In this document: positions 3,482 through 34,877 of the stretch, in pieces | How positions within the stretch are numbered: position 1 is the first letter of the stretch | Layout: each line of letters begins with the position of its first letter | From: a bacterium | GTDB lineage: Bacteria > Patescibacteriota > Minisyncoccia > Phycocordibacterales > UBA9973 | Assembly (NCBI GenBank): GCA_037200905.1 | Contig: JBBCGN010000001.1 | Location: 244,795-308,794, forward strand | Reading direction: 5' to 3' | Length of the DNA: 64,000 nt | Made by a program: the position numbers and the translations under genes | The notes under the pieces: generated by a model | The model's database searches: none | What the model was told of the DNA's origin: nothing | The model's input: only the letters and a program-made list of their open reading frames with translations

Positions 3482-4132
3482 ATGGAAAATAAAGAGACAA
3501 GAGAAAAGATACTCACCGCTATGAACTGGCGCGCTACGCAACGCAGGTGTTCGACAAGGAGAAAAAAGTCGCCGCGGAAGATATTCATACCATACTCGAA
3601 GCCGCTCGCCTCTCCCCCAGCTCGATCGGCATCGAGGCCTGGAAATTCTTGTCATCGAAAGTCCGGAAATACGCGAAAAGATATTCCAAGTCGGCAAGCA
3701 GCCGAAGATGCGGGATGCATCGCATCTTGTTGTTATCGCTTACCGTACTGATGCTGCAGAAAATATTACCCGTGAACGACTCGAACGCACTGCAAGATAC
3801 AAAACCAAAAAATTGAAAATCTCGACGGGCTCAAGGCCACACTCGAACGAGGCATCAATGCAAAGATACAAAGCGGCACGCTTGAAGCTTGGGTAAAATC
3901 CCAGACGTATATACCGCTCGGTATCATGATAGAGGCCGCATCGCTCTTGGGCATCGATAACGGACCCATGGAAGGCTTCCCGCCAGAACAGATCGATGAG
4001 ATTCTCGGACTGAAGGAGCAGAATTTAAAATCGGCGACGATGCTCGCGCTCGGCTATCGCGATGACGCAGACCCGGCCAGCCTGCGTCCGAAAGTGCGCC
4101 GCGCATTCGGCGACGTCGTGCAATTCATCTAG
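3482..4132 (+). pseudogene. NAD(P)H nitroreductase family protein (about three frame breaks)
   Basis: ORFs 3482, 3547, 3708 and 3926 join. Segments include ..[26 protein letters not shown].., ..[12 protein letters not shown].. and ..IEAASLLGIDNGPMEGF..ATMLALGYRDD. Confidence 0.75.
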
Positions 4133-12761: not shown

Positions 12762-13000
12762 ATTTTTGATGACTGTTAATTTTTCTGCTCTTGATAATCT
12801 TTTCAAAGCTCCTTCTCGTGCTCGGGCCTTGGCATACGTCCGCACCCGTTCGGAATATTTCAGAGTGACCGGCCGGCGGATCTTGGTGTAGTGCGCGCCG
12901 TTCTTGGAATTGTTGTGCTGATGCAGTCTTTTTCTAAATCGTTAGTACTGCCTACATAGAGCGTCTTGTCTTTGCACTCGAGAATGTATACGAAGAACAT
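12762..13000 (-). pseudogene. Small GIY-YIG nuclease family protein (frame break; no stop before the next gene)
   Basis: MFFVYILECKDKTLYVGSTNDLEK, then in another frame RLHQHNNSKNGAHYTKIRRPVTLKYSE..AREGALKRLSRAEK. Confidence 0.65.
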
Positions 13001-22734: not shown

Positions 22735-24816
22735 TTATTGCCCATTGGCTACCGCCATGCTCATCGTTCCGAAAAAACCCGTTCCCCGAGTGAGGTGTAT
22801 CGGACGCAAGATAACGGAAGCGTTGGCCTCCTGGAACTTGATGAGCGCCGCTTCGGTAGCAGGGCCAAAATAATGGGTCTCGTTAGCAAGAGAACCCGGC
22901 AGGGGCGACGGCGCCACCGCAAAGCCATGGGCATTGAGGTATTGCTGCAGATGGTAGACATCCGTATCGGTCATCCCCCGTCGCAGAGTCTTAGTGAAGA
23001 GGTATGCAGGAGACTCGGGCAAAATGACAGGCACGGATGAAGCCGGCGTCACAGTGCGCGCCCTGCCTCCTCCGCTTCCCCCGCTCGAATGCGAAGAGGA
23101 GCGCCGCGGTTCGGACTCGAGCGCAATGGTGACGGAATCTTCCGCCGTACCTCCCGGACCCGTGCATGAGAGCGTGAAAGTGCTCTCTGAATCAAGGGCG
23201 GCAGTAGTCTCCGTGCCGGCTGACGGCTTAGCGCCGCTCCAATCTTCCGAGGCAGTACAGGTGCCGTCATAGAGGTTGGCGACGGACCACGTGAGTTCGG
23301 CGGTGCCGCCACTTGGGACCGTATCGTGATCCGCGGTAAAAGTAATTACCGGAGCGATGGGGTCGCCGACGGTAATAGAGGCATCTTCTTCCGCCGTTCC
23401 TCCGGGGCCGGTACAGGAAAGCGTGAATGTGCTGTCTCCTGTCAGGTTCTCGACCGTTTCCGTGCCGCTTGAGGCTTTGGAGCCGGACCAGTCGCCGCTC
23501 GCAGTGCAGGAATCAACATATCCTGTAACATTCCATGAGAGTTCAACGGATCCGTCGTACGCTACGGTGTCGGAATCAGCAGAGAATGCAATAGCAGGAG
23601 CCGCAAAGCCGAGGCGGACAACAGCGCCCGTGGTAGTGCCGTTGTATGTAGTAAATGCTCCTCCCGCAAGCACATTGTCGTCGGGATCGATAAGAAGCGC
23701 ATTCAAAGTACTATTAAATCCGCTACCCGCATCGAACATATCATCGCGCGTCCCATCGGCATTGAGGCTGACGATCCTATTAGTGGTAGTGGCGTTAAAC
23801 GACGTGAAGCTGCCGCCGACGAGAATCTTGCCGTTGCCGTCGACCGCGATGGAGGACACGATGTTATTGCCAAACCCTGTTCCAGGATTGAAGCTCCCAT
23901 CGACCGAGCCGTCAGCATTCAAGCGGATGATCCTGTTTGCCGTCGTGCTGCCATACAACGTGAAGCTGCCGCCGACGAGAATCTTGCCATCATCAAGAGT
24001 GATGGCTCGCACGGTTCCGCCAGTTCCGCCGATGCTGAATCCGGTCCCCGTGTCAAAATCTTCATCAATCGAACCGTCCGTGTTCAAACGGGCGAGCCTG
24101 TTGGCGGTCGTACCGTCAAATGACGCGAAATCTCCGCCGACAATCACTTTTCCGTCAGATTGGAGTGCGACGGTCCGGACGGTGGCGGCGGCGAATCCTG
24201 TGCCGATATCGAACGACGTATCGAGCGTTCCATCAGCGTTGAGGCGCATGATGCGAGAAGGAGTATCAGCGCCGTACGCTATGAAGTTCCCTCCGACGAT
24301 ATATTTCCCGTCCGGCTGGAGGGCGAGCGCCGTCAGCGTGCTGATGCCGGTGAATAAACTGGTGAACGTCTCGTCGCGGGAGCCGTCGGCGTTGAGGCGA
24401 ACCAGCATGTTGGTAGTAGCGCCGTCGTACGCGCTAAAAGAGCCGCCGACGAGAACCTTGCCGTCTGGCTGGAGTACGAGCGCGAACACCCCTGGGCTTG
24501 CGCCTCCTGAGATGCCAGTGCCAATATCGAAAGTTTCGTCTCGCGAGCCGTCGGCGTTGAGGCGGATGATCCTATTAGCAGCGATGCCCTTATACGAGGT
24601 GAAGGTGCCGCCGACGAGAACCTTGCCGTCTGGCTGGCGGGCTAAGACACTCACGGTGCCAGAAGGGGCGAATCCCGCGCCGGTATTGAAGCTCGCATCG
24701 AGTGTTCCGTCGGATGCGGAGGCATGCAACGGCAAAAAAGAACTCAGTAAAAAGAGAGAAAGTATACTAAAGAAAAAATACTTCTTCATAATACTATATA
24801 AGTATAGTATATTCAT
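22735..24816 (-). CDS. Large secreted protein with delta-60-type repeats, Ig-like domains and a C-terminal PG-binding domain (probable start 24789)
   Basis: About eight repeats of DG(T/S).D.(S/T)F..G.GF....V..(L/I).(L/V)Q.DGK(V/I)LVGG.F. The C-terminus has ..TDVYHLQQYLNAHGF..FGPATEAALIKFQ. Confidence 0.7.
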   Translation of the reverse strand: MNILYLYSIMKKYFFFSILSLFLLSSFLPLHASASDGTLDASFNTGAGFAPSGTVSVLARQPDGKVLVGGTFTSYKGIAANRIIRLNADGSRDETFDIGTGISGGASPGVFALVLQPDGKVLVGGSFSAYDGATTNMLVRLNADGSRDETFTSLFTGISTLTALALQPDGKYIVGGNFIAYGADTPSRIMRLNADGTLDTSFDIGTGFAAATVRTVALQSDGKVIVGGDFASFDGTTANRLARLNTDGSIDEDFDTGTGFSIGGTGGTVRAITLDDGKILVGGSFTLYGSTTANRIIRLNADGSVDGSFNPGTGFGNNIVSSIAVDGNGKILVGGSFTSFNATTTNRIVSLNADGTRDDMFDAGSGFNSTLNALLIDPDDNVLAGGAFTTYNGTTTGAVVRLGFAAPAIAFSADSDTVAYDGSVELSWNVTGYVDSCTASGDWSGSKASSGTETVENLTGDSTFTLSCTGPGGTAEEDASITVGDPIAPVITFTADHDTVPSGGTAELTWSVANLYDGTCTASEDWSGAKPSAGTETTAALDSESTFTLSCTGPGGTAEDSVTIALESEPRRSSSHSSGGSGGGRARTVTPASSVPVILPESPAYLFTKTLRRGMTDTDVYHLQQYLNAHGFAVAPSPLPGSLANETHYFGPATEAALIKFQEANASVILRPIHLTRGTGFFGTMSMAVANGQ

Positions 24817-25065
24817 GTAAAAAATGAAGAGTATGCTCTCTCGAGAGGCAATTATCTCAGCCGTAGGAGAGATACGAATCTATACAATCTTATAGAAACG
24901 TTTTCTAAACGCGTCTCGGGCGCAATAACCTCGCACGACTTGGCTGCAATGTCTGGTCATGAAACTAATCACGCCAGACGTCATAAGGGTATTCTAACAC
25001 TTTCCCGTCTTCCAAACTAACGGCTTTGGGTCTATATATAATATAAGCCCTTTACAGCATAACGA

Positions 25066-25083
25066 TATAATCAAATATTTGAT
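25066..25083 (+). promoter_or_regulatory. -10 box overlapping a perfect 14-bp palindrome (candidate operator)
   Basis: TATAAT at 25066-25071. ATCAAATATTTGAT at 25070-25083 is its own reverse complement and ends 12 nt upstream of the ATG at 25096. Confidence 0.45.
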
Positions 25084-25095
25084 ACAATGTGATAC

Positions 25096-25623
25096 ATGAA
25101 ATTAGGAAGCGATGCAAAGGAACGGCTCAAGCAAATCGTCAGAAACGCGGTAGCGCTCGACCCTATGATTTCCCTTCGAGACCTGCAGGCAGTACTTCTC
25201 CAGAAAGGCATCAAGATCGGCAACCTCAATTCGCTGGCTAGGATCAGGAAAGAACTGACCGAAGATGCGATAGAGGAAATGGACCGGCCACAAGTGCTCA
25301 AGCGGTATGCGGATATGGAGGAACGGATGCGGGTGCTCCGAACGGAGCTATTCAAGATCATCTACCCTGACGGCAAGAGCGGTATGTATCCGAGCTACAG
25401 CGAACAGATCTCTGCGATGAAGATATTGATGGAAAGCGACATCAAGCTCTTCCGAGCCGGACTTGATATGGGTATCTACCGCAAGGACGTGGCTAAAGGA
25501 AAGAAGTATACGAAAGAGGAAGAGTTGGCTATGCGAAATAGGCCATTGAATCCTGAGCACAGAGAAAGTATGTTAAAGGCGTTCAAGAACTTTGGATTGA
25601 TTCCGAAGGATGCGGAGATATAA
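25096..25623 (+). CDS. Hypothetical protein, possible HTH partner/antitoxin of the downstream AbiEii-type gene
   Basis: 175-aa intact ORF. Its stop is 4 nt before the next start. The N-terminal ..ISLRDLQAVLLQKGIKIGNLNSLARIRKEL.. looks HTH-like. I see no resemblance to the AbiEi families. Confidence 0.35.
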   Translation: MKLGSDAKERLKQIVRNAVALDPMISLRDLQAVLLQKGIKIGNLNSLARIRKELTEDAIEEMDRPQVLKRYADMEERMRVLRTELFKIIYPDGKSGMYPSYSEQISAMKILMESDIKLFRAGLDMGIYRKDVAKGKKYTKEEELAMRNRPLNPEHRESMLKAFKNFGLIPKDAEI

Positions 25624-25627
25624 ATAT

Positions 25628-27049
25628 ATGATTTTAAAAGACGAGATTGATCAAAAATCAAAAGAGCAACAAATAACAACCGCTAACGTGCAGCGGGATT
25701 ATCTTTTTGGTTGGCTGTTAAATTATATTTTCACTCAGAGCGAATTGAAGGACTCACTTTTCCTTAAGGGCGGAAACGCACTGAGAAAAGCCTATTTTAT
25801 AAAAACTCGTTTTTCAACCGATCTGGATTTCGGTACTCCAAACGATATTGACCAAGAATTTTTGAAACAAGAGATTGAAAAAGCGTGTCAGTTCGTAAGC
25901 GAGAAAGCTGGTATCGCTTTTGTCCTTGAAAGGAACGACGTAAGGGAAAAGTTCAATTGGAACGAACCGCGCTGGAAAGTTTTTGAGGTAAAAATTTATT
26001 TTAAAGATTTCTATGGAAACTCTGATCACATCACCCTCAAAATCTCTCTCGATGTAACCAGATTTGATAAAACATATCTTGATATACAGGAACGCACGCT
26101 TCTGCATCCCTACTCAGATGTAGCCGAGGTGGCATGCCAAATAAAATGCATGCAACTGGAAGAAGTTTTGGCGACAAAGTTAAAATGCTTGCTACAACGC
26201 GACCATGCGCCAGACCTTTTTGATTTTATATACAGTATCTATTTGAATACAGACATACCGATCAATAAGGCAGACATTCGAAGAGTTTTCCTTCAGCGAA
26301 CAATTTTTGAACGCAGTCCTCTCGTCGCAAAGAATATTCTTCTCAAATTACCATTCGAATACATGAAGGCGGTATGGCTAAAAACGATTATCTGTACACA
26401 AGATATTCTCTTTGAGTTTGATGATGCCTTTGCAAAATTCACTTCTGAAATTGAGGCCTTGTTTGCGGAGGACACAGAGAATCCGTGGCATGACCGCTTT
26501 TTCTTTGAAGCGGACGTACGAAATAAAATTATGAAGGCCGGAAAGGATCAAACTCTTTTGCGTATCGTTTACCAAGGATCGGAAAGACTTGTTGAACCCT
26601 ATTCTTTGAAGTTTCAAGAGAAGAGTGACGGTGCTACAAAAGAGTACCTGTATGTTTGGAATAGAAACGGTGGAAGTAGTCCCAAGCCTGGAATACGAAT
26701 GTTTGTTCCTGAGAATCTGACATCTATAGAAAATACCGAAGAAAAATATGAGCCTCAGTACGAGATAGAATTATGCCGTGCAGGAGAATACCCTGAAGAC
26801 AGATATCTATACGATGTAAAAAAGAAGCGAGAGAAAGAACATAACAAACTGTATAAAGTAAAAGCGCCTCGACAATCTCGACCGACCAGAACGAGAGTGT
26901 CTTCTTTTGGCCCTACTTACGTTTACAAGTGCGGTAACTGCGGAAAACTATCATATCGCAAAACCATGGACGGAACCTTAAAGCCACACAAAAGCAAGAA
27001 TGGTTATTTGTGTTACGGATATGGAATCTACCAGACCACAAAATTTTAG
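25628..27049 (+). CDS. AbiEii/AbiGii-type nucleotidyltransferase (DUF1814) fused to a WYL-like domain and a C-terminal zinc ribbon
   Basis: VQRDYLFGWLLNYIF..LFLKGGNALRKAYF..RFSTDLDF is the DUF1814 signature. LLRIVYQGSERLVEPYSLKF..EYLYVWN..IRMFVPENLTSIE fits the WYL pattern. YKCGNCGK..HKSKNGYLCYGYG is CxxC..H..C. Confidence 0.75.
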   Translation: MILKDEIDQKSKEQQITTANVQRDYLFGWLLNYIFTQSELKDSLFLKGGNALRKAYFIKTRFSTDLDFGTPNDIDQEFLKQEIEKACQFVSEKAGIAFVLERNDVREKFNWNEPRWKVFEVKIYFKDFYGNSDHITLKISLDVTRFDKTYLDIQERTLLHPYSDVAEVACQIKCMQLEEVLATKLKCLLQRDHAPDLFDFIYSIYLNTDIPINKADIRRVFLQRTIFERSPLVAKNILLKLPFEYMKAVWLKTIICTQDILFEFDDAFAKFTSEIEALFAEDTENPWHDRFFFEADVRNKIMKAGKDQTLLRIVYQGSERLVEPYSLKFQEKSDGATKEYLYVWNRNGGSSPKPGIRMFVPENLTSIENTEEKYEPQYEIELCRAGEYPEDRYLYDVKKKREKEHNKLYKVKAPRQSRPTRTRVSSFGPTYVYKCGNCGKLSYRKTMDGTLKPHKSKNGYLCYGYGIYQTTKF

Positions 27050-27057
27050 ACTCCATT

Positions 27058-27130
27058 CGACCGTTTATAGCTTAACTTCCTTCTTTAAAATTGTGTAGTT
27101 GACTTGTTAGCTATATTGCTCCGTAAATCT
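27058..27130. repeat. Left copy of a ~72-bp direct repeat flanking the ABC/TrmB cassette
   Basis: cgaccgtttatagCTTAACTTCCTTCTTTAAAaTTGTGTAGTTGACTTgttagctatattGCTCCGTAaaTCTC, compared with 30477..30548. The 35-bp core has one mismatch. Confidence 0.85.
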
Positions 27131-27803
27131 CTTTACGCAATTGATTAAATTCCTCGGTAAATTTAATTTCTGGATTTCGTGGTCTTGGAAACGGAACGAT
27201 GAATTCTTTTGTAAAACCCGTCGGATGAAGAACCAATACTCGGTCAGCTAAAAATAGTGCTTCCTCAATATTGTGAGTAACAAAAATGACTGTCTTTTTG
27301 TGCGTGGTCCACACATCCAACAACCACTTCTGCATTTTATCTCTGGTATACGCGTCAAGCGCTCCGTATGGTTCGTCCATAAGAAGAACATCTGTGTTGT
27401 GAGCAAGTGAACGCGCAATAGCAACTCGCTGAACTTGTCCCCCAGATAGCTCGTCAGGGTACGCGTCCGCTTTGTCTTCCAGTTCTGCAAGCTTGAGGTG
27501 TTCATTTACCATTGCACAATTGTCTTTTGTATCACCTTTCAATCCGAAAGCTATATTTTCGGAAACTGTCAGCCATGGGAAGGCGGCATAATTTTGGAAA
27601 ACCATTCCAATGTTTCCAGACAAAGAGACCTCTCCTTGATACGGAATGAAATTCGCAAGAGCATGAAGCAAGCTACTTTTACCACTTCCAGATTTACCGA
27701 CAATCGCTACAAATTCTCCTTTGCTCACTTCGAAGGAAACATTCTCAAGTGCAGAGTGGTTCTTGTAACTTACATTTAGATTTTTGACAGTTATCTGGTT
27801 CAT
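27111..27803 (-). CDS. ABC transporter ATP-binding protein (nitrate/sulfonate/taurine NitT-type)
   Basis: GKSGSGKSSLL (Walker A), LSGGQVQRVAIARSL (signature), VLLMDEPYGALD (Walker B). Confidence 0.85.
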   Translation of the reverse strand: MNQITVKNLNVSYKNHSALENVSFEVSKGEFVAIVGKSGSGKSSLLHALANFIPYQGEVSLSGNIGMVFQNYAAFPWLTVSENIAFGLKGDTKDNCAMVNEHLKLAELEDKADAYPDELSGGQVQRVAIARSLAHNTDVLLMDEPYGALDAYTRDKMQKWLLDVWTTHKKTVIFVTHNIEEALFLADRVLVLHPTGFTKEFIVPFPRPRNPEIKFTEEFNQLRKEIYGAI

Positions 27804-28555
27804 TTTTGTGAAAGAGTTAGCCATGGAAAGATTCGGCGAGTAGCCAACACAAAGAGTTGATCGGTAACAGCGCCGAGCGTCCCTAGAACAACTAATGCCG
27901 CTATCATTTCATCAATCCGGTACGAAAGAGATGATATTGAGATTCGATATCCAATACCGCTTGAGGCTCCTGACAGTTCAGACACGAAGACCATTACAAA
28001 CCCGATTGCGATAGCTGTTCGAATACCGGAAATAATGAAAGGAAGACTTGCAGGAAAAATTACTTCCCGAAACATCTTGAAACGAGACAAAGCAAAAAGT
28101 CTTGCGCTCCACAAGAACGTCTGCGGTATTTGTTGGGCGCCGATATATGCACCAATCCATACTGGGAAAAAGACAGCGAATGCTATGGAAAATATCTTTG
28201 CGCCATCATCAATACCAAACCAAACAATAATGAGTGGGATAATGGCTACAGGAGGCAACGGCCTAAGTATCTGAATGATAGGGTTTATTGCCTTTGCTAT
28301 GGACTTTATACGGCCTGTAACTAAACCGGTACAAATACCGATAACTGAACCGAGAGTCAGCCCGACTACAAGTCTCCAAAGACTGTCTCTGAAATCATAA
28401 AAGACAGTACCGGATATAATCATTTCCCAAAGAGCTATGGCAACTTTTGATGGTGGCGGAAATAAAGCAGGATTAACAAAACCACTACGAGATACTAATT
28501 CCCACAGTATACATACTGAAATAATTGGAAGAATAAACCATAGGAATTTTTTCAT
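27800..28555 (-). CDS. ABC transporter permease (NitT/TauT family)
   Basis: 251 aa, six TM segments, BPD_transp_1-like ..FREVIFPASLPFIISGIRTAIAIGF.. Confidence 0.8.
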   Translation of the reverse strand: MKKFLWFILPIISVCILWELVSRSGFVNPALFPPPSKVAIALWEMIISGTVFYDFRDSLWRLVVGLTLGSVIGICTGLVTGRIKSIAKAINPIIQILRPLPPVAIIPLIIVWFGIDDGAKIFSIAFAVFFPVWIGAYIGAQQIPQTFLWSARLFALSRFKMFREVIFPASLPFIISGIRTAIAIGFVMVFVSELSGASSGIGYRISISSLSYRIDEMIAALVVLGTLGAVTDQLFVLATRRIFPWLTLSQK

Positions 28556-28571
28556 GGGTCATGAGATTGCT

Positions 28572-29591
28572 TTAAATACCAACTGCTCCCGAAGAAATCT
28601 TTTTGAGCGGAGCACTGTAGATAACATCCTGGAAATTTGGAATTACAGTATCTTTAGTTACTTTACCGCTATCTTTAGCCCACTGTGCTTCTCGATTCAA
28701 GTATTCGAGCAATTGAGGAGTAAGAGCGATGCGGAAATCAAAACTACCCCAGATTCCATCGACTGTTTCCTTGTCGAGTTTTGTGTATTTCATCACTACA
28801 GCTTTTGCTTCCTCTGGATTGTTCTTGGTAAACTTTTCTGCTTCAACAAGTCCTTTCAATAGTTTTTCAAGTGTTGCAGGATTTTCTTTAACAGACTCTT
28901 TTGCTTCTATGACATAAAGTTCTGAATAAATACTCGCGTCAGTGAAAGTGATGGATTTATCACCAAGCTGCTTTTCAGCTATGTACGCGAATGGATCAAA
29001 TACTGCAATAGCATCTACACTTCCACTTATTAGAGCAGCCGGCATATCCTTTGGCGCCTGACTCACGATTTCAACTTGGTCTTTGGAAATACCGAGCTTG
29101 TTCAAAAATTCATAGGTAAAGAATTCCGGCCCACCACCAATAGACGTAGCTATCTTTCGCTTCTTTGCTTTGAAGTATTGATCAGAAGTCTCGAGTCCTG
29201 CTTCTTTGCGCGCAACAACTCGTACTTCATTCTGAGTCTTGCCAACTACTTGCGCAGGCACAACAAATTTATTTCCCTGAAGGGAGGCAAGAGTTACTGG
29301 AACATCACCAGAAATTGAAAAATCCAAAGATCCTCCGAGAAATGCTTCGAGGGCAAACTTACCAGCAGTAAATTCCTTGAGCTCAACATTAAGTCCCTCT
29401 TTTTCAAAAAAGCCTTTGTCTTTTGCCACCATGACCAAGGCCATAGCAGGAGAGGTTTGAATTCCCACTGTTACATGTTCCAGTTCTTTGGGCTGCTTTA
29501 ATCTGGCATGCCAAGCAAATAACCCACCTATTAAGGCAAGGATGATAATGGTCCACAAAATATTTTTTGATGTTTTTGACATATACACCAC
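28572..29591 (-). CDS. ABC transporter substrate-binding protein (NMT1/SsuA-like; probable start 29582)
   Basis: N-terminal anchor, then ..VTVGIQTSPAMALVMVAKDKGFFEKEGLNVELKEFTAGKFALEAFLGGSLDF.. Confidence 0.75.
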   Translation of the reverse strand: MVYMSKTSKNILWTIIILALIGGLFAWHARLKQPKELEHVTVGIQTSPAMALVMVAKDKGFFEKEGLNVELKEFTAGKFALEAFLGGSLDFSISGDVPVTLASLQGNKFVVPAQVVGKTQNEVRVVARKEAGLETSDQYFKAKKRKIATSIGGGPEFFTYEFLNKLGISKDQVEIVSQAPKDMPAALISGSVDAIAVFDPFAYIAEKQLGDKSITFTDASIYSELYVIEAKESVKENPATLEKLLKGLVEAEKFTKNNPEEAKAVVMKYTKLDKETVDGIWGSFDFRIALTPQLLEYLNREAQWAKDSGKVTKDTVIPNFQDVIYSAPLKKISSGAVGI

Positions 29592-29670
29592 AATCTACAG
29601 TTTTGGTAAAGTATTGTAAACACTGTTGTACATTATTGACAACATAAACCGACTTTGATAGCATGAGGAT

Positions 29671-30489
29671 ATGATTGAAGACATACTCAAAAAGCTTGAT
29701 TTGCGCGACGAGGAAATAAAGGCCTTCCTTTTCCTTCTGGAGAACGGACCTCAAACGGCTGGCAATCTAGCTAAAAAGACCGGCCTATCCCGCCCTTCCC
29801 TATATGGGTTCATGCGCAAACTCCAAAAAATGGAGCTAGTTATTGAATCTCAGAAAAACGGCATCAAGACTTTCACAGCAAGTTCAAAAGAAAAAGTTTC
29901 TAGCCTTTTCGATGAGAAAATACAAGAACTAGAGCAAGGCAAGCTCTCAATCGAAAAAGTCTACAGCGAAATCCTCAAAACCGGAGCGACTATCAGTCCG
30001 AAGTTTCAATTATTTGAAGGCAAAGATGGAATGAAGCTCGTACTCAAAGACATGCTTATGTATCGAGACATTGAGACGAAATCATATTGGCCTATAAAAG
30101 CCATGATTGAAATTCTCTCTGAAGATTTTTTCAAAACATTAAATAAGGAGCGTATCCAGCGAAAACTTACGACTCGAGCAATCTGGCCCCAGAACCAAGT
30201 CGTGGATATAAAAAAATACCCTTATCTTGGGACTGGAGAGAAATTTCTCCGAGAAATCCGTGTAGCACCGAAAGATATTGGTTTCTCTATGGGTTACTGG
30301 ATATACGGAAATAAAGTTGCTTTTATTTCTTCCAAGAAAGAAGCTTTCGGATTTATTATCGAGAGTAAGGAGCTCGTTGAAATGCTCTCTTCTCAGTTTG
30401 AAGTCATGTGGAAACTTTCACGTCCCATAAAAGCAAAAGAGAGTGATTCCGCAGAATTTTTAAAAGAACTAAAAAACGACCGTTCGTAA
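29671..30489 (+). CDS. TrmB family transcriptional regulator
   Basis: LDLRDEEIKAFLFLLENGPQTAGNLAKKTGLSRPSLYGFMRKLQKMELV is a TrmB-type wHTH. Transcribed divergently from the ABC operon. Confidence 0.75.
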   Translation: MIEDILKKLDLRDEEIKAFLFLLENGPQTAGNLAKKTGLSRPSLYGFMRKLQKMELVIESQKNGIKTFTASSKEKVSSLFDEKIQELEQGKLSIEKVYSEILKTGATISPKFQLFEGKDGMKLVLKDMLMYRDIETKSYWPIKAMIEILSEDFFKTLNKERIQRKLTTRAIWPQNQVVDIKKYPYLGTGEKFLREIRVAPKDIGFSMGYWIYGNKVAFISSKKEAFGFIIESKELVEMLSSQFEVMWKLSRPIKAKESDSAEFLKELKNDRS

Positions 30490-30548
30490 CTTAACTTCCT
30501 TCTTTAAATTTGTGTAGTTGACTTATATCTTATTCTGCTCCGTATCTC
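30477..30548. repeat. Right copy of the ~72-bp direct repeat
   Basis: cgaccgttcgtaaCTTAACTTCCTTCTTTAAAtTTGTGTAGTTGACTTatatcttattctGCTCCGTATCTC. It overlaps the TrmB stop codon and precedes the recombinase gene. Confidence 0.85.
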
Positions 30549-30592
30549 GTTATTCACTAGACTTCGCACGTTGTTCCGGTATGTTCGTGTGT

Positions 30593-31924
30593 ATGGAACA
30601 AATAGCACCATATGGAGCTCAAATAGGCATACCTCCAGTATTGCAGACAGAGCCAGTCAGATACTGTTTATATGCCCGTAAATCGAGCGAGGCAGAAGAA
30701 AAGCAAGCACTCTCAATTGATTCTCAAGTAAAGGAGATGCTCGATATCGCTCAAAAAGATAATCTGAACGTTACCGATATGTACCGCGAATCTCACTCGG
30801 CAAAAGATTGCGGACAGAGACCAGTTTTCAATAAATTACTTCTTGATATCCGTGAGGGTAAATTCGATGGCGTCCTCGTTTGGCATCCAGACCGCCTCTC
30901 TCGAAACGCTGGTGACCTCGGCGCTATAGTCGATTTGCTTGACCAGAAAAAATTGATTGAGATACGGACATATAGCCAGCGCTTTACCAATAATCCAAAT
31001 GAGAAATTCCTTTTGATGATTCTCGGATCACAAGCAAAACTCGAAAATGACAACAAGAGCATCAATGTGAAGCGTGGATTACGAACTCGAGTTGAAAGTG
31101 GTCTATGGCCCAGCGTTGCTCCTACCGGATATCTTAATCACCCTGATCGAACAATGAAATGCCATGTGATTGTTGATCCATTACGATCGCATGTAATACG
31201 ACTCATTTTTGAGAAAGCGGCCTATGAGAAAATGAGTATCCGAAAACTATTCCGCTGGCTCAAAGAGGACGTCCGATTTACTACGAGACATGGAAAACCA
31301 CTCAGTCTAAGCAATATCCAGCTCATTCTTCGTAATAATTTCTATATGGGACTGATCGAATATCCACGAGGGTCAAGCAAGTGGTACCCTGGCAAACACG
31401 AACGCATAATTAGTGAAGAACTTTTCAAAAAGGTTCAGGAAAAATTGGATGCAAGTAAAAATGGTGAACAACGCACTAAAAAAGAGTTCGCGTTTACCCG
31501 TCTTATGAAATGCGGTATGTGTAAATCCGGAGTGACTGCTGAAGAAAAGTTCAAGAACTTAATTGATGGAAGTGTTGCAAAGTACATTTATTATGGCTGT
31601 ACAAGGTTCAATGATAAAAATTGCAAGAATACTTACCTACGCGAAGATAATCTAATTGAGCAATTGCTCGAGATTGTAGATCGAATTGATATCAATAACG
31701 TAGGCATCAAAAGTAAACTTGAAAAAGAAATCGAACGTTTTGGAGAATTTAGAAGCAAGGTTTTGGGAACCACTGAACAAGAGAAAATCGTACAGACAAA
31801 AATTGATGTACGAAACTATATGAAATACCTACTCCGAGAAGGAACGATTCAAGAAAAGCGAGATTTGATGCAGTCGTTCACGAGTAAGCTCATTTTGATC
31901 AACAAAAGAGTTGTGCTCGAGTAA
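30593..31924 (+). CDS. Large serine recombinase (resolvase domain, recombinase domain, zinc ribbon)
   Basis: YCLYARKSSEAEEKQALSIDSQ (catalytic Ser region), VWHPDRLSRNAGD, ..CGMCKSGVTAEE..YYGCTRFNDKNCKN. Start taken as MEQIAPYG; an alternative start is 30581. Confidence 0.85.
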   Translation: MEQIAPYGAQIGIPPVLQTEPVRYCLYARKSSEAEEKQALSIDSQVKEMLDIAQKDNLNVTDMYRESHSAKDCGQRPVFNKLLLDIREGKFDGVLVWHPDRLSRNAGDLGAIVDLLDQKKLIEIRTYSQRFTNNPNEKFLLMILGSQAKLENDNKSINVKRGLRTRVESGLWPSVAPTGYLNHPDRTMKCHVIVDPLRSHVIRLIFEKAAYEKMSIRKLFRWLKEDVRFTTRHGKPLSLSNIQLILRNNFYMGLIEYPRGSSKWYPGKHERIISEELFKKVQEKLDASKNGEQRTKKEFAFTRLMKCGMCKSGVTAEEKFKNLIDGSVAKYIYYGCTRFNDKNCKNTYLREDNLIEQLLEIVDRIDINNVGIKSKLEKEIERFGEFRSKVLGTTEQEKIVQTKIDVRNYMKYLLREGTIQEKRDLMQSFTSKLILINKRVVLE

Positions 31925-31928
31925 AAAA

Positions 31929-32768
31929 CTATTCTGATTTTACTTCTCCAGATTCAAGCTTAGTAACGATTTCATTCATAGTGTAATGCACAAATTGTTT
32001 TCCAAGCTCAGTTAATTCATATTGTTTATCATCATCAAAAGCAGAGGTAGCATAGCGCACACTACCCGCAGGCTTCGATGTTTTTTTGCTGGGACGTATT
32101 ATTACATTTCCTTGATAATCCCTTTCTTTATGCTGTCTTATTACATGCCCTGTACTTAAATCATGTACGAGTAACTTAAATAAATCTGCTTCGGCCGAAT
32201 CTTCTCGAACAGCTTCACCGTGTATTTGATCCCAAATTTCTTGCCTTGTATAACCTGGATTATTAAATACAACTCTTACAACAGCAAAGTGAGCTTCTGA
32301 ATATATGTCAATCCATGAGACAAACATGCGAACTACATCATCTGAGCAAATTTTAGTAGAAGCCGAATTTGCAAGTAAATTTCTTATCAACTTTCTCTTC
32401 TCTTCGCTTTCTGCCGCAGACCAATCTCGGAAACACTTTTTCACAATCTTTAAATACTCAGGACTTTGCAACCTTTCTCTAATTTTTTCATCGGTTTGAT
32501 CTACACGTGCCATAACTTCCATGATAGTTATGGCAATCTCTTTTATTTCATCCTCTTGTAGTTTAAGCCATGTACCAAATATGTTATTCAAATTTTCTTG
32601 CTCTTTTTCAGACCATGATCCTCCTATGCCACCAATGGCTCCCCCAATAACCGGAATAGCACTTAAACAAGCAAGTGCAAAGCGAGCAGCTTTTGGTCCT
32701 GAACCTGATTCTAAAGCTTCATCAAGTTGTTTTCTTAAGTCACTTTTTTCTTCTTTGTCATCTTTCAT
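31929..32768 (-). CDS. Hypothetical protein with an N-terminal glycine-zipper hydrophobic segment
   Basis: ..AARFALACLSAIPVIGGAIGGIGGSW.. followed by a helical region. It lies 16 nt downstream of the HEPN-like gene on the same strand. Confidence 0.4.
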   Translation of the reverse strand: MKDDKEEKSDLRKQLDEALESGSGPKAARFALACLSAIPVIGGAIGGIGGSWSEKEQENLNNIFGTWLKLQEDEIKEIAITIMEVMARVDQTDEKIRERLQSPEYLKIVKKCFRDWSAAESEEKRKLIRNLLANSASTKICSDDVVRMFVSWIDIYSEAHFAVVRVVFNNPGYTRQEIWDQIHGEAVREDSAEADLFKLLVHDLSTGHVIRQHKERDYQGNVIIRPSKKTSKPAGSVRYATSAFDDDKQYELTELGKQFVHYTMNEIVTKLESGEVKSE

Positions 32769-32784
32769 ATTAATTTACTTTAAA

Positions 32785-33576
32785 CTACTTAGAGCTTTTA
32801 TCTGCTAATTTAGCAAGTAAACTTACGAAAGCAATGAACTCTAGAGCCATTTCTGGATCATCTTTTATAATTTTATGTGCACGAGGATTTCTTAAGCCAG
32901 CGACTGCACCCGAGAACATCATCATGAATCCTTTTTGCTCATCAATATCTGAAGTATCTGCAAGAGTATTAAATTTCAATACAGGACTCTTGGAACTAAA
33001 TACAAACTCCATAAGTGCTATTCCGTCTTTATCATCAATCCCACTATTCATTCTCACAAGAGCATTTAATGCTTTAACTGCATCTTCAATCGCGTTGGAA
33101 TAATGCCCATCTTTAAAAAGATTTCCAACTGCTCTTTCAATTGCAGGATGAAGCTCAAGACCCTCATATGCTTTAAGTGTTTTCCCAGATGAAGTTTGCC
33201 CAGCATCCCCAAGTTCTTCTAAAAAGATTGCTTTTATACCCTCAAGTTGTTGCCTAGATTCTGTTACTGATTCACTGACGCTTTGTTTAATTTCTCCAAG
33301 AGTTATATCTGGCCACCAACTACCTGGATTAAGGCTAGTAACACCATGGCGGTATCTTTCATACTCAACCGTATTAGTTCCAAAAATAGAAGCCAGAGTA
33401 GCCTCAAGGGTTTTTTCTAATGTAAGAACTGTGGGATCGCCATATTTAGTGATCGAATTTATATCTAGATTTTCTAGATCTTTGATTCTTCTGTCGATCT
33501 TAGGAATAGCTGCTTGCATCTGTTGAAATGACAAATTAGCTTCTACAGGTTCTGATTTCTTAGGTTTTTGGGACAT
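32785..33576 (-). CDS. TIGR02391 (Hypoth_Ymh)-like protein with an Rx4H HEPN-type motif
   Basis: ELHPAIERAVGNLFKDGHYSNAIEDAVKALNALVR..GFMMMFSGAVAGLRNPRAHK.. The N-terminal ~130 aa look like coiled coil. Confidence 0.65.
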   Translation of the reverse strand: MSQKPKKSEPVEANLSFQQMQAAIPKIDRRIKDLENLDINSITKYGDPTVLTLEKTLEATLASIFGTNTVEYERYRHGVTSLNPGSWWPDITLGEIKQSVSESVTESRQQLEGIKAIFLEELGDAGQTSSGKTLKAYEGLELHPAIERAVGNLFKDGHYSNAIEDAVKALNALVRMNSGIDDKDGIALMEFVFSSKSPVLKFNTLADTSDIDEQKGFMMMFSGAVAGLRNPRAHKIIKDDPEMALEFIAFVSLLAKLADKSSK

Positions 33577-33652
33577 ATATAAATTATACTCTTAATCTTA
33601 ATTTTTAAACGAACAGACCACTTTAGGTCACTGGGTACGAAAAACTAAACTG

Positions 33653-33723
33653 CTGGGAGACTAGGACTCGAACCTAGATAAACAGGACCAGAACCTGTTG
33701 TCCTACCATTAGACGATCTCCCA
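33653..33723 (-). tRNA. tRNA-Gln (anticodon CTG)
   Basis: TGGGAGA TC GTCT AATGGTA GGAC A ACAGG TTCTGGT CCTGT TTAT CTAGG TTCGAGT CCTAG TCTCCCA G. Cloverleaf drawn by hand. No encoded CCA. Confidence 0.85.
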
Positions 33724-33726
33724 ATG

Positions 33727-33963
33727 CTACATCTTCGATCTTAACTCCTTCTTTCCTTTTGCAGTCTTGTAGTACCTTTCTTTACGGAATGCCTCATATT
33801 TATCATCATACGGTTCGAAATATAAAATCTCAAATGGAACACGAGATTTGGTAGATTTTACTTTGCCCGAATTGTGATAATTCAAACGATTTTCTAAAGA
33901 TTCAGTACAACCAATATATTGGTTATCGTCCTTTTTGCTTTTTAAGACATACACGTAATGCAT
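33727..33963 (-). CDS. Small GIY-YIG nuclease family protein
   Basis: MHYVYVLKSKKDDNQYIGCTESLENRLNYHNSGK..R.PFEILYFE..KYEAFRKERYYK. Its stop codon is 3 nt from tRNA-Gln position 1. Confidence 0.8.
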   Translation of the reverse strand: MHYVYVLKSKKDDNQYIGCTESLENRLNYHNSGKVKSTKSRVPFEILYFEPYDDKYEAFRKERYYKTAKGKKELRSKM

Positions 33964-33964
33964 A

Positions 33965-34032
33965 CTGTTGTCCTACATTAGCCTCGCCCGTAGGCTGGAG
34001 CCTTCGGGCTACGGCCGAGGGACGATCTCCCA
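33965..34032 (-). pseudogene. Decayed copy of the tRNA-Gln 5' half, interrupted by a 39-nt GC-rich hairpin
   Basis: Minus strand reads TGGGAGATCGTC[CCTCGGCCGTAGCCCGAAGGCTCCAGCCTACGGGCGAGG]CTAATGTAGGACAACAG, against the intact TGGGAGATCGTCTAATGGTAGGACAACAGG. Confidence 0.8.
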
Positions 34033-34116
34033 ATACCCGTATACATTACTAGAAAACCGGACTTTTTTCAACTTTTGCCATTTTTGACTTTCGGGAATTA
34101 AAGGTATAATAAGCCA

Positions 34117-34377
34117 ATGGTTTGCCCGGTGTCACAAATGGATATTTTCTTCATCATCTCGTCGATCGGGTTCGTCTCGGTGTGGATCTTCGGCACCATC
34201 GTCCTGGTGCGTCTGGCGCGCATCCTGGGCACGTTCCGCCGCATAGCGGACGGGCTCGAGAAGAACATCGAGAACATCGGCGACTCCGCCGAAGAGATGG
34301 TGGAGGACGTGCGCGACAGTACAGCGTACCGCCTGCTGTTCGGCAAGAAGAGGAGGAAGCACAAAAAGAGCGAATAA
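34117..34377 (+). CDS. Small membrane protein (DUF948-like)
   Basis: One N-terminal TM segment and a charged helical tail. TTGACT at 34084 upstream. Confidence 0.45.
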   Translation: MVCPVSQMDIFFIISSIGFVSVWIFGTIVLVRLARILGTFRRIADGLEKNIENIGDSAEEMVEDVRDSTAYRLLFGKKRRKHKKSE

Positions 34378-34829: not shown

Positions 34830-34877
34830 AAAGGCAAATAAAAATCCCGCAGTCTGCGGGATTTTTATTTGCCTTTT
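34830..34877. terminator. Long bidirectional terminator palindrome
   Basis: aaaggcaaataaaaatcccgcag-t-ctgcgggatttttatttgccttt. The right arm overlaps the pyrG stop codon. Confidence 0.8.

Follow-up and report, generated by a model that had tools for sequence, protein, structure and literature searches.

We analyzed a cassette at a tRNA-Gln gene in a 64-kb stretch of a Patescibacteria genome (contig JBBCGN010000001.1); the whole stretch is called the window below. The cassette consists of a partial 5' copy of the tRNA gene, split by a GC-rich hairpin, and a 78-amino-acid (aa) open reading frame (ORF) belonging to the superfamily of GIY-YIG nucleases, and it is followed by an intact tRNA-Gln. 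An initial annotation, made from the window alone, had proposed a tRNA-associated GIY-YIG cassette with a partial 5' tRNA duplicate, and we found this arrangement to recur across 67 loci. Our favored reading, which we hold with about even confidence, is that the cassette is a conserved module of the Ssn type, composed of a nuclease and its cognate hairpin, which resides in a partial tRNA duplication, is driven by the tRNA promoter, and is gained, lost, and amplified via short repeats.

Results

Organization of the tRNA-Gln locus

The elements of the cassette lie on the minus strand of the window (Table 1), and direct re-reading reproduced to the base the order that had been reported. The described copy of tRNA-Gln positions 1 to about 30, ending in the anticodon stem, was found as two segments, positions 1-12 (TGGGAGATCGTC) and positions 13-29 with one G deleted (TAATGTAGGACAACAG). 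The second segment contains TAGGA, a possible ribosome-binding site, 7 nucleotides (nt) 5' of the ATG. Also as reported, a single T separates the fragment from the start codon, the 78-aa ORF is a GIY-YIG gene (Pfam E = 7e-16), and its stop codon lies 3 nt (CAT) ahead of an intact tRNA-Gln(CTG), which both ARAGORN and Rfam recognize. The AT common to both tRNA copies is part of a longer repeat, with AT plus positions 1-12 identical at 34021-34034 and 33712-33725. The 39-nt hairpin was likewise recovered at 34020-33982; its site is the 5' strand of the D-stem, between positions 12 and 13, and not the D-loop as first described, and the inserted block (hairpin plus one C) measures 40 nt.

The similarity of the fragment to the tRNA held up under a formal test: the window contains a single split match TGGGAGATCGTC-N30-60-TAGGACAACAG, and none appeared in 100 shuffles. 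An Rfam search of positions 33500-34200 at E ≤ 10 returned the tRNA as its sole match, and no tRNA 3' half was found elsewhere in the window at ≤3 mismatches.

Recurrence at tRNA-Gln and tRNA-Glu genes

We scanned one genome per species, which yielded 456 relatives of the ORF, and kept the best 80 loci. Identity to the window ORF is ≥54% in 32 of these best 80. One of the 32 (L003) is on a contig that ends 62 nt past the ORF, with the tRNA partly in view; in the other 31, the gene is always on the same strand as, and upstream of, tRNA-Gln(CTG/TTG) or tRNA-Glu(CTC/TTC), at a distance of 0-40 nt in 26 and 82-247 nt in five. A survey of whether small GIY-YIG ORFs regularly lie beside tRNA 5' ends with stranded copies had been suggested with the initial annotation, and all 31 loci lie 5' of tRNA-Gln or tRNA-Glu, nearly all with such a copy. 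Adding metagenome loci brought the collection to 67 loci with 58 distinct ORFs, with tRNA-Gln(CTG) at 30, tRNA-Gln(TTG) at 23, and tRNA-Glu at nine; four further loci of the 67 are cut by the contig end, with the tRNA start visible. These homologues derive from Patescibacteria.

The leader preceding the ATG is nearly universal and consists of the first 12 nt of the local tRNA, the same hairpin, and tRNA positions 13 to ~25. The end of the fragment varies between position 12 and ~35, and most cassettes keep 13 to ~25, so the insertion point proposed in the anticodon arm is particular to the window copy. At the other end, the stop codon is the D-loop TAA inside the tRNA in 33/56 ORFs and lies 0-9 nt upstream of the tRNA in 18/56. 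Many homologues end in ..HCGIV*, ..QCGVV*, or ..NWEIV*, which are the translated tRNA 5' end up to the D-loop TAA, and several mis-called N-terminal extensions (SAVARRL, GEAN) are translated hairpin. Because the ORF-tRNA junction is constant and the fragment-ORF junction is variable, the element appears to carry the ORF beside a tRNA 5' segment. This agrees with the earlier idea of the ORF and a replacement tRNA 5' half as one unit; the anticodon-arm breakpoint attached to that idea does not hold for the family.

The 12-nt fragment is identical to the neighboring tRNA in 22 of 38 distinct forward cassettes and has at most one mismatch in 27/38. On average it differs from the local tRNA by 1.1 mismatches and from the tRNAs of other loci by 2.66 (permutation, 0/5000), and the segment after the hairpin follows the local tRNA less tightly (1.05 vs 1.53 mismatches). 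The tRNA-Gln and tRNA-Glu genes share the sequence ATCGTCTAA, and the cassette has moved between such genes: the Glu-associated ORFs form essentially one clade on the ORF tree, which implies at least one move between tRNA species. An exact-protein look-up with the 78-aa ORF returned its source contig only. Our literature search found no prior description of GIY-YIG genes with tRNA fragments in Patescibacteria or the candidate phyla radiation, and the tRNA association of this small gene appears to be undescribed in the literature searched.

The hairpin

As single-stranded DNA (ssDNA), the window hairpin has a predicted folding energy of -14.1 kcal/mol (z = -3.0), and none of 200 shuffles folds as well. 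A hairpin with the same sequence (CCTCGGCCGTAG..CTACGGGCGAGG) and the same G.G mismatch is present in 62/63 cassettes that have the tRNA in view. It had first been taken for secondary decay of the tRNA half; judged by this conservation, it is instead a component of the cassette. The stem position opposite the G frequently varies between CTACGG and CTATGG. The conserved central G.G mismatch makes the hairpin directional, and 51 copies are forward at tRNA position 12/13, while 11 are reversed in the acceptor strand, with the fragment ending at about position 12-15. Forward and reverse forms are interspersed on the ORF tree, and the close relatives L007 and L197 are of opposite types, which points to repeated hairpin turnover. 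Hairpin number also varies: L015 has two in tandem vs one in L017, and there are four in L090; L010, L018, L024, and L028 contain nested copies; and a second hairpin lies downstream of the gene in L013, L020, L024, and L099.

A pattern scan of metagenome contigs identified at least 121 distinct hairpin instances. At least 32 are in a tRNA D-arm (mostly 38-40 nt), at least five are tandem, and at least five are reversed; at least 79 are solo hairpins in unrelated, often AT-rich contexts and are mostly 25-26 nt long. Among the matches listed, 77/78 solo hairpins have a C at both -1 and +1. The pattern was absent from viral contigs.

The GIY-YIG protein

The AlphaFold model of the 78-aa ORF (pLDDT 96) is a complete minimal GIY-YIG core alone, with elements in the order bbabaa (E-E-H-E-H-H). 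Residues Y5, Y16, G18, R26, H30, and E62 are invariant in 38 homologues. The spacing of the GIY and YIG motifs (about 10-11 residues), the conserved Arg, His/Tyr, and Glu, the b-b-a-b-a-a core, and Foldseek matches to GIY-YIG domains all place the protein in the GIY-YIG superfamily; NCBIfam contains no model that matches it. The top matches in the Protein Data Bank (PDB) are UPF0213 protein BH0048, at 37% identity and a profile E value of 6e-11, and the nuclease domain of Slx1 (TM-score 0.70), and the I-TevI catalytic domain is more distant in fold (TM-score 0.54). Homologues are 78-93 aa long, with the entire chain forming the GIY-YIG core. They are thus single-domain proteins of less than 150 aa, as are Ssn proteins, and carry no DNA-binding domain of the kind found in Seg/Tev-type homing endonucleases, since they extend by a few codons at most, into the tRNA.

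The ORF is intact in 66/67 loci, and the median ratio of nonsynonymous to synonymous substitution rates (dN/dS) is ~0.2, with saturated synonymous sites. The intact frames and the low dN/dS indicate that the ORF is under purifying selection.

Promoter

A promoter-like TTGAAA-17-TAATGT sequence precedes the fragment in the window. Presumably it is the promoter of the tRNA and now drives expression of the entire cassette; the ORF itself has no obvious one. A generic promoter scan reports GTGACA-18-TATTAT at 34135-34106 instead. Across the family, a promoter-like site ends 3-15 nt 5' of the fragment in 14/57 cassettes. Directly 5' of the intact tRNA the count is 1/57, and random positions give 3%. 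Relatives with an empty allele have TTGATT-17-TATTGT 13 nt 5' of the tRNA. Because promoter sites precede the fragment and rarely the intact tRNA, the fragment appears to occupy the native +1 of the tRNA promoter. A further promoter-like sequence, TTGAGA-17-TATGAT (10/12 matches), is found inside the GIY-YIG ORF (33805-33833, minus strand), ~80 nt 5' of the intact tRNA, and could be a second, cassette-internal tRNA start.

Gain, loss, and inheritance

By CTP synthase (PyrG), the closest relatives of the window genome are L202 and L203 (89% identical) and L205 (86%), all of which share prfB-ftsE-ftsX-pyrG-DUF948 with the window. Uninterrupted alleles in relatives, a check proposed at the outset, were found here. 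Over 74 nt (AT plus 72), the tRNA-Gln(CTG) of L202 and L203 matches window positions 33652-33725 with 100% identity; it is preceded by a promoter and nothing else, with no fragment, hairpin, or GIY-YIG gene upstream; L205 is likewise empty. The cassette is thus accessory. In these relatives the tRNA-Gln lies elsewhere and in the opposite orientation, and the window locus is therefore rearranged. Compared with L202 and L203, window positions 34033-34120 show the tRNA-Gln inverted and moved beside the DUF948 gene, and a block of genes, pilin-like (N_methyl) and neighboring ones, which in the relatives separates tRNA-Gln from DUF948, is absent from the window.

Other loci hold intermediate forms. 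ORF-deleted remnants that keep the fragment, the hairpin, and both ORF ends are present in L127, L144, and L151. The near-identical loci L151 and L088 differ in having one unit and two in tandem, respectively, a full unit precedes an ORF-deleted one in L099 and L137, and L020 and L024 have a full-length pseudo-tRNA with a D-arm hairpin beside the intact copy. These would be the products expected of unequal direct-repeat recombination plus decay.

Sixteen tRNA-Gln(CTG) cassettes have prfB-ftsE-ftsX upstream, and seventeen cassettes, mostly at tRNA-Gln(TTG), have dnaX. ORF identity correlates with FtsX (rho 0.42) and DnaX (rho 0.34) identity, and the ORF is better conserved than the host genes compared (65% vs 39%). 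ORF GC content follows that of the host (rho 0.83), with the window copy as the largest outlier (0.33 vs 0.56). Based on selection, saturated synonymous sites, synteny, and the correlations with host genes and GC content, the family seems to be mainly an old, selected resident that is vertically inherited and patchily lost. The low GC content of its ORF suggests that the window copy is probably a recent arrival, like the low-GC island next to it.

A sister clade at tRNA-Cys

ORFs with ~51% identity to that of the window lie at the tRNA-Cys genes of Bacteroidota, Ignavibacteria, and Desantisbacteria. Their identity among themselves is 53-63%, and a different hairpin, CCCGCC-loop-GGCGGG, lies inside their pseudo-tRNA-Cys. 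In three genomes, the hairpin substitutes for tRNA positions 39 to ~57 with identical boundaries. The pseudo-tRNA-Cys is upstream in L052 and L053, and a 3' fragment is downstream in L058 and L064. The 5' side is thus not essential to the design, and the idea that the locus is a 5' mirror image of classical tRNA integration does not extend to this clade, which duplicates either side. Hairpin type and tRNA species vary together with the ORF clade, in support of cognate pairing. CCCGC..GCGGG occurs near 8/48 distant relatives, mainly in the tRNA-Cys group, and is not a general test of Ssn membership. Related GIY-YIG ORFs outside Patescibacteria were also seen at tRNA-Ser (L079), tRNA-Thr (L072), and tRNA-Asp (L048).

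Discussion

A proposed nuclease-hairpin module in a tRNA transcription unit

Ssn proteins are single-domain GIY-YIG proteins of ~94 aa that bind a flanking hairpin repeat as ssDNA only (PMC11893778). They cut a few nt upstream of the hairpin, and ..GTC before and C after the palindrome matter (PMC11893778); the same paper mentions neither tRNA nor Patescibacteria. The cassette resembles this system in four respects: (i) both proteins are single-domain GIY-YIG proteins of about 80-95 aa; (ii) the catalytic Tyr/Tyr/Glu align, as Y5/Y16/E62 in the ORF and Y6/Y17/E64 in SsnA; (iii) the gene is flanked by a directional imperfect hairpin repeat of 25-50 nt that is also found elsewhere in genomes, for the cassette upstream of the gene in 62/63 cases and as at least 79 solo copies on metagenome contigs; and (iv) ..(G)TC precedes and C follows the hairpin, with the tRNA supplying CGTC in the cassette. 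It differs in that the C-terminal third of the protein is unrelated (KTAKGKKEL in the ORF, KKWNRAWK..W.DLW in SsnA), the stem is longer (12 bp) and of other sequence, the window has one hairpin in its 64 kb rather than clusters, and the whole is embedded in a partial tRNA duplicate, presumably fused to the tRNA transcription unit, in a patescibacterial host.

The elements are ordered as tRNA promoter, pseudo-tRNA 5' piece (positions -2 to 12), hairpin, positions 13 to ~25/29, 78-85-aa GIY-YIG gene, and working tRNA. This anatomy is shown by the data, as are recurrence, polymorphism, selection, and fold; with respect to co-transcription, substrate, cut site, and the mechanism of recombination, we infer the following. 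Transcription of the nuclease would start at the tRNA promoter and run through the pseudo-fragment as the 5' untranslated region (UTR), and RNase P would free the tRNA from the 3' end of the nuclease transcript. The hairpin would be the ssDNA recognition element cognate to the nuclease, as in pairs of SsnA and its NTS hairpin. By analogy with SsnA, cleavage would occur in the duplicated tRNA core, a few nt 5' of the hairpin, and the intact tRNA, which has no hairpin, would be spared. The short direct repeats would allow precise deletion of the cassette, its tandem duplication, or its movement between tRNA genes that share ATCGTC followed by TAA, and nicking beside the hairpin probably stimulates this repeat recombination.

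Several observations weigh against this reading. The Ssn family (cd10448) is defined by a blastp E value below 1e-10 to Neisseria meningitidis SsnA or by cd10448 as the best CDD hit. We took P0243, a 94-aa protein that has the published Y6/Y17/E64 (PMC11893778), as the presumed SsnA of N. meningitidis; the ORF is 27% identical to it over 64 aa, with a pairwise E value of 1e-6 and an hhalign probability of 96.5% (E = 8e-10). The two proteins are homologous by this comparison, with the similarity below the published family threshold, and ssDNA and hairpin activity is therefore ascribed to the ORF by analogy only; what we propose is an Ssn-like function, and we do not claim membership in the Ssn family. 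Only 25% of cassettes show the strict promoter pattern. In the metagenome sample, the flanks retrieved with solo hairpins mostly lack a GIY-YIG gene, and the solo hairpins themselves are mostly of the shorter 25-26-nt form. The hairpin is sometimes inverted relative to the ORF, and the window has a single one, with no further copy in its 64 kb at ≤3 mismatches or with relaxed arms. No recent transfer was caught among the copies, whose synonymous sites are saturated, and the founding duplication event is not reconstructable from present copies.

Alternative explanations

The same dispersed hairpins bear on two other explanations, each of which we regard as possible though improbable. In the first, the locus is an old tandem (partial) tRNA duplication with a hitch-hiking or domesticated GIY-YIG gene served by the tRNA promoter, and the hairpin is an unrelated REP/MITE-like palindrome of Patescibacteria, tolerated solely in the dead copy and functionally independent of the nuclease. 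This would account for the many hairpins (at least 79 of at least 121) in other contexts with no GIY-YIG gene in view, for full-length pseudo-tRNAs with hairpins (L020, L024, L053), and for shifts of hairpin orientation and position between close ORF relatives; conserved synteny and co-divergence with host genes would reflect vertical descent. A merely tolerated palindrome would not be expected at one of two narrow sites in 62/63 cassettes, however, nor would cassette hairpins mostly be of a 38-40-nt subtype when the solo ones, among the matches listed, are mostly 25-26 nt. The different hairpin family of the sister ORF clade and the published precedent for pairing a single-domain GIY-YIG protein with a flanking hairpin (PMC11893778) also argue against it.

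In the second, to which we assign a similarly low probability, the hairpin and the GIY-YIG gene together would be an autonomous element mobilized as ssDNA, with the 12-14-nt tRNA 5' core (..ATCGTC) as its attachment site. A cut just 5' of the hairpin would fall exactly at the cassette boundary, unit-length strands from A-hairpin-ORF-A-hairpin arrays would re-insert at the D-arms of tRNA-Gln and tRNA-Glu, and the 25-26-nt hairpins would be non-autonomous derivatives. REP/RAYT and IS200/IS605 systems similarly tie an enzyme gene to short hairpins recognized as ssDNA and leave dispersed intergenic solo repeats. Their enzymes, however, are HUH/Y1 transposases with covalent intermediates, and a GIY-YIG hydrolase alone cannot rejoin DNA. 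If true, this reading would place beside IS200/IS605 and REP/RAYT a counterpart driven by a GIY-YIG nuclease, and would add a new class of mobile elements with a new mode of targeting tRNA genes.

Homing seems to us less probable still. A free-standing GIY-YIG cassette would cut uninterrupted tRNA-Gln as double-stranded DNA (dsDNA) and be copied by break repair, the hairpin being a later incidental insertion; homing on the intact tRNA gene had also been considered in the initial annotation. In its favor, an identical tRNA is found with and without the cassette among close relatives, the junction of ORF and tRNA is constant and the upstream one variable, the cassette has moved between tRNA-Gln and tRNA-Glu genes with ATCGTCTAA, and the ORF-deleted remnants recall the decay cycle of homing endonucleases. 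There is also a parallel in T4 SegB, reported as a GIY-YIG homing enzyme that acts in a tRNA gene cluster (PMC2330249). SegB and I-TevI share with the cassette a GIY-YIG gene beside tRNA genes and presence/absence polymorphism; they differ in being 200-250 aa long, in having a DNA-binding domain with which they cut dsDNA, and in lacking a tRNA half-duplication or hairpin. The 78-aa catalytic domain has no such DNA-binding domain, and its fold is nearer to Slx1/UPF0213 than to I-TevI; the closest characterized relatives are directed by structure or by hairpins. A further target would be the intact tRNA beside the ORF. It is identical over 74 nt to the empty allele of L202 and L203, and sequence gives it no protection unless upstream context matters. 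A near-universal, sequence-conserved hairpin is not incidental, and 66/67 intact ORFs, a dN/dS of 0.2, saturated synonymous sites, and host-like GC content indicate long residence rather than invasion and decay. The view of the cassette as a double-strand homing endonuclease is therefore not supported.

A role at the RNA level alone is improbable in our view. Here the tRNA-like leader and the hairpin would be conserved only as a regulatory or stabilizing 5' UTR or as a decoy for tRNA-binding factors. The fragment does lie between promoter and ATG, many copies have the D-arm TAGGA or the hairpin GAGG at ribosome-binding-site distance, and the CTACGG/CTATGG variation opposite G would give a G.U pair in RNA. 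On the other side, the same hairpin is found facing either way with respect to the ORF and also in many contexts other than a UTR, the RNA fold of the whole leader is unexceptional (z = -1.75), and there is no Rfam match. Such a role would be compatible with the nuclease-hairpin module.

Relation to other known systems

The best sequence and fold matches to the ORF are UPF0213/YhbQ-type proteins and Slx1 (PDB 1zg2, 1ywl, 7cq3, and 6sei). Slx1 enzymes are structure-selective, unlike sequence-specific homing enzymes, and differ from the ORF in having a RING domain and requiring Slx4; bacterial UPF0213 proteins have no described tie to hairpin repeats or tRNA genes. Integrative elements that target tRNA genes resemble the cassette in that a partial tRNA direct repeat flanks the insert and an intact tRNA is regenerated (PMC9897764). 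Such elements span kilobases, carry an integrase gene, and usually leave a duplicate of the tRNA's 3' part (PMC9897764), whereas the cassette is ~0.3 kb, has no recombinase, and has a 5' duplicate that carries a hairpin. There is no recombinase between the tRNA repeats, as there would be in a genomic island or prophage, and their sole content is the 237-nt GIY-YIG ORF.

tRNA genes that contain group I introns are known in Patescibacteria (PMC13011429), and a paper on tRNA introns in this group does not mention GIY-YIG. A group I intron, which would show a ribozyme core between two tRNA exons at the anticodon loop, was rejected here: the downstream copy is a whole tRNA and not a 3' exon, a ribozyme would not fit, and Rfam gave no intron match in 33500-34200 (E ≤ 10). 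A split or permuted tRNA was considered and dropped.

Under the reading we favor, the partnership of nuclease and hairpin would extend to a second protein clade (UPF0213/Slx1-like) and to Patescibacteria. The module would be built into an essential tRNA gene whose promoter it borrows, and the short tRNA repeats would permit its scar-free loss. It would also explain two features of patescibacterial genomes that annotation pipelines face, namely recurring 5' tRNA gene fragments and GIY-YIG ORF calls with odd N- or C-terminal extensions, which are translated hairpin or tRNA. The defined protein-substrate pair (78 aa, 40-nt hairpin) makes a directly testable candidate for a site-specific ssDNA nuclease.

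Adjacent low-GC island and minor observations

A low-GC island (0.37-0.42 vs ~0.54) starts right after the tRNA 3' end, and we treated it as separate from the cassette. It carries genes for a large serine recombinase, a TrmB-family regulator, an NMT1-type ABC transporter, an AbiEii toxin-like protein, and Abi_alpha-like and Hypoth_Ymh proteins. Compared with relatives, the downstream sequence diverges immediately after ..CCCAGC, and reading the left edge of the island revealed no tRNA remnant. It is very unlikely, and largely refuted, that the fragment is an attachment-site scar of this 9-kb island left by integration through the recombinase: the fragment is at the edge of a low-GC stretch, the recombinase is 1.7 kb past the tRNA, and similar recombinases converge on the tRNA 3' end in seven cassette loci, yet the same cassette is found in ~50 loci without such an island, the island is on the 3' side of the intact tRNA and not between fragment and tRNA, and there is no tRNA 3' half at its far end or elsewhere in the window.

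Table 1. Features of the cassette locus and the adjacent island (window coordinates)
Feature	Position	Strand	Remarks
Promoter-like TTGAAA-17 nt-TAATGT	34071-34043	-	10 nt 5' of fragment position 1
AT dinucleotide ahead of tRNA copy	34034-34033	-	sequence reading
TGGGAGATCGTC, copy of tRNA-Gln positions 1-12	34032-34021	-	sequence reading
Upstream direct repeat, AT + tRNA-Gln positions 1-12 (TGGGAGATCGTC)	34021..34034	-	identical to 33712-33725
GC-rich hairpin, 39 nt	34020-33982	-	next base C at 33981
Imperfect palindrome CCTCGGCCGTAG-loop-CTACGGGCGAGG + C	33981..34020	-	12-bp stem, central G.G mismatch
TAATGTAGGACAACAG, copy of tRNA-Gln positions 13-29	33980-33965	-	one G deleted
Single T between tRNA fragment and ATG	33964	-	
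Single-domain GIY-YIG ORF, 78 aa	33963-33727	-	ATG start, TAG stop; Pfam PF01541, E = 7e-16
CAT spacer, ORF stop to tRNA	33726-33724	-	
Intact tRNA-Gln(CTG)	33723-33652	-	downstream direct repeat and working gene; ARAGORN; Rfam tRNA, 60.7 bits
Low-GC island	24820..33651		starts right after tRNA 3' end
Large serine recombinase gene	30518-31924	+	outside the tRNA repeats, 1.7 kb beyond tRNA
AbiEii toxin-like protein gene	25610-27049		within low-GC island

In six other cassette loci (L005, L017, L021, L089, L094, and L152), related recombinase genes converge on tRNA-Gln or tRNA-Glu at the 3' end or overlap it, which suggests a family of islands targeting these tRNA genes. A second, different small GIY-YIG gene (MFFVYILECKDKTLYVGSTNDLEK..) lies at window positions 12770-12998 (minus strand) and is frameshifted; intact relatives of this type are located just 3' of the cassette tRNA in L014 (3440-3690) and L020 (3872-4096). 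L020 also has GC-rich ~45-nt tandem repeats (CCGACGAACGAAGGTGAGGAGGTACTGAGCCCAACAGGGCGTAGCA) after the tRNA at 3555-3790, with a stretch of masked N within them. Between the convergent pyrG and a lysine-rich ORF, window positions 34830-34876 form a perfect inverted repeat (23 nt, 1-nt spacer) that is probably a bidirectional terminator. Six diverged ~156-nt copies at window positions 23716-24627 are blade repeats in a gene for a 693-aa DUF5122 beta-propeller protein (22735-24816, minus strand).

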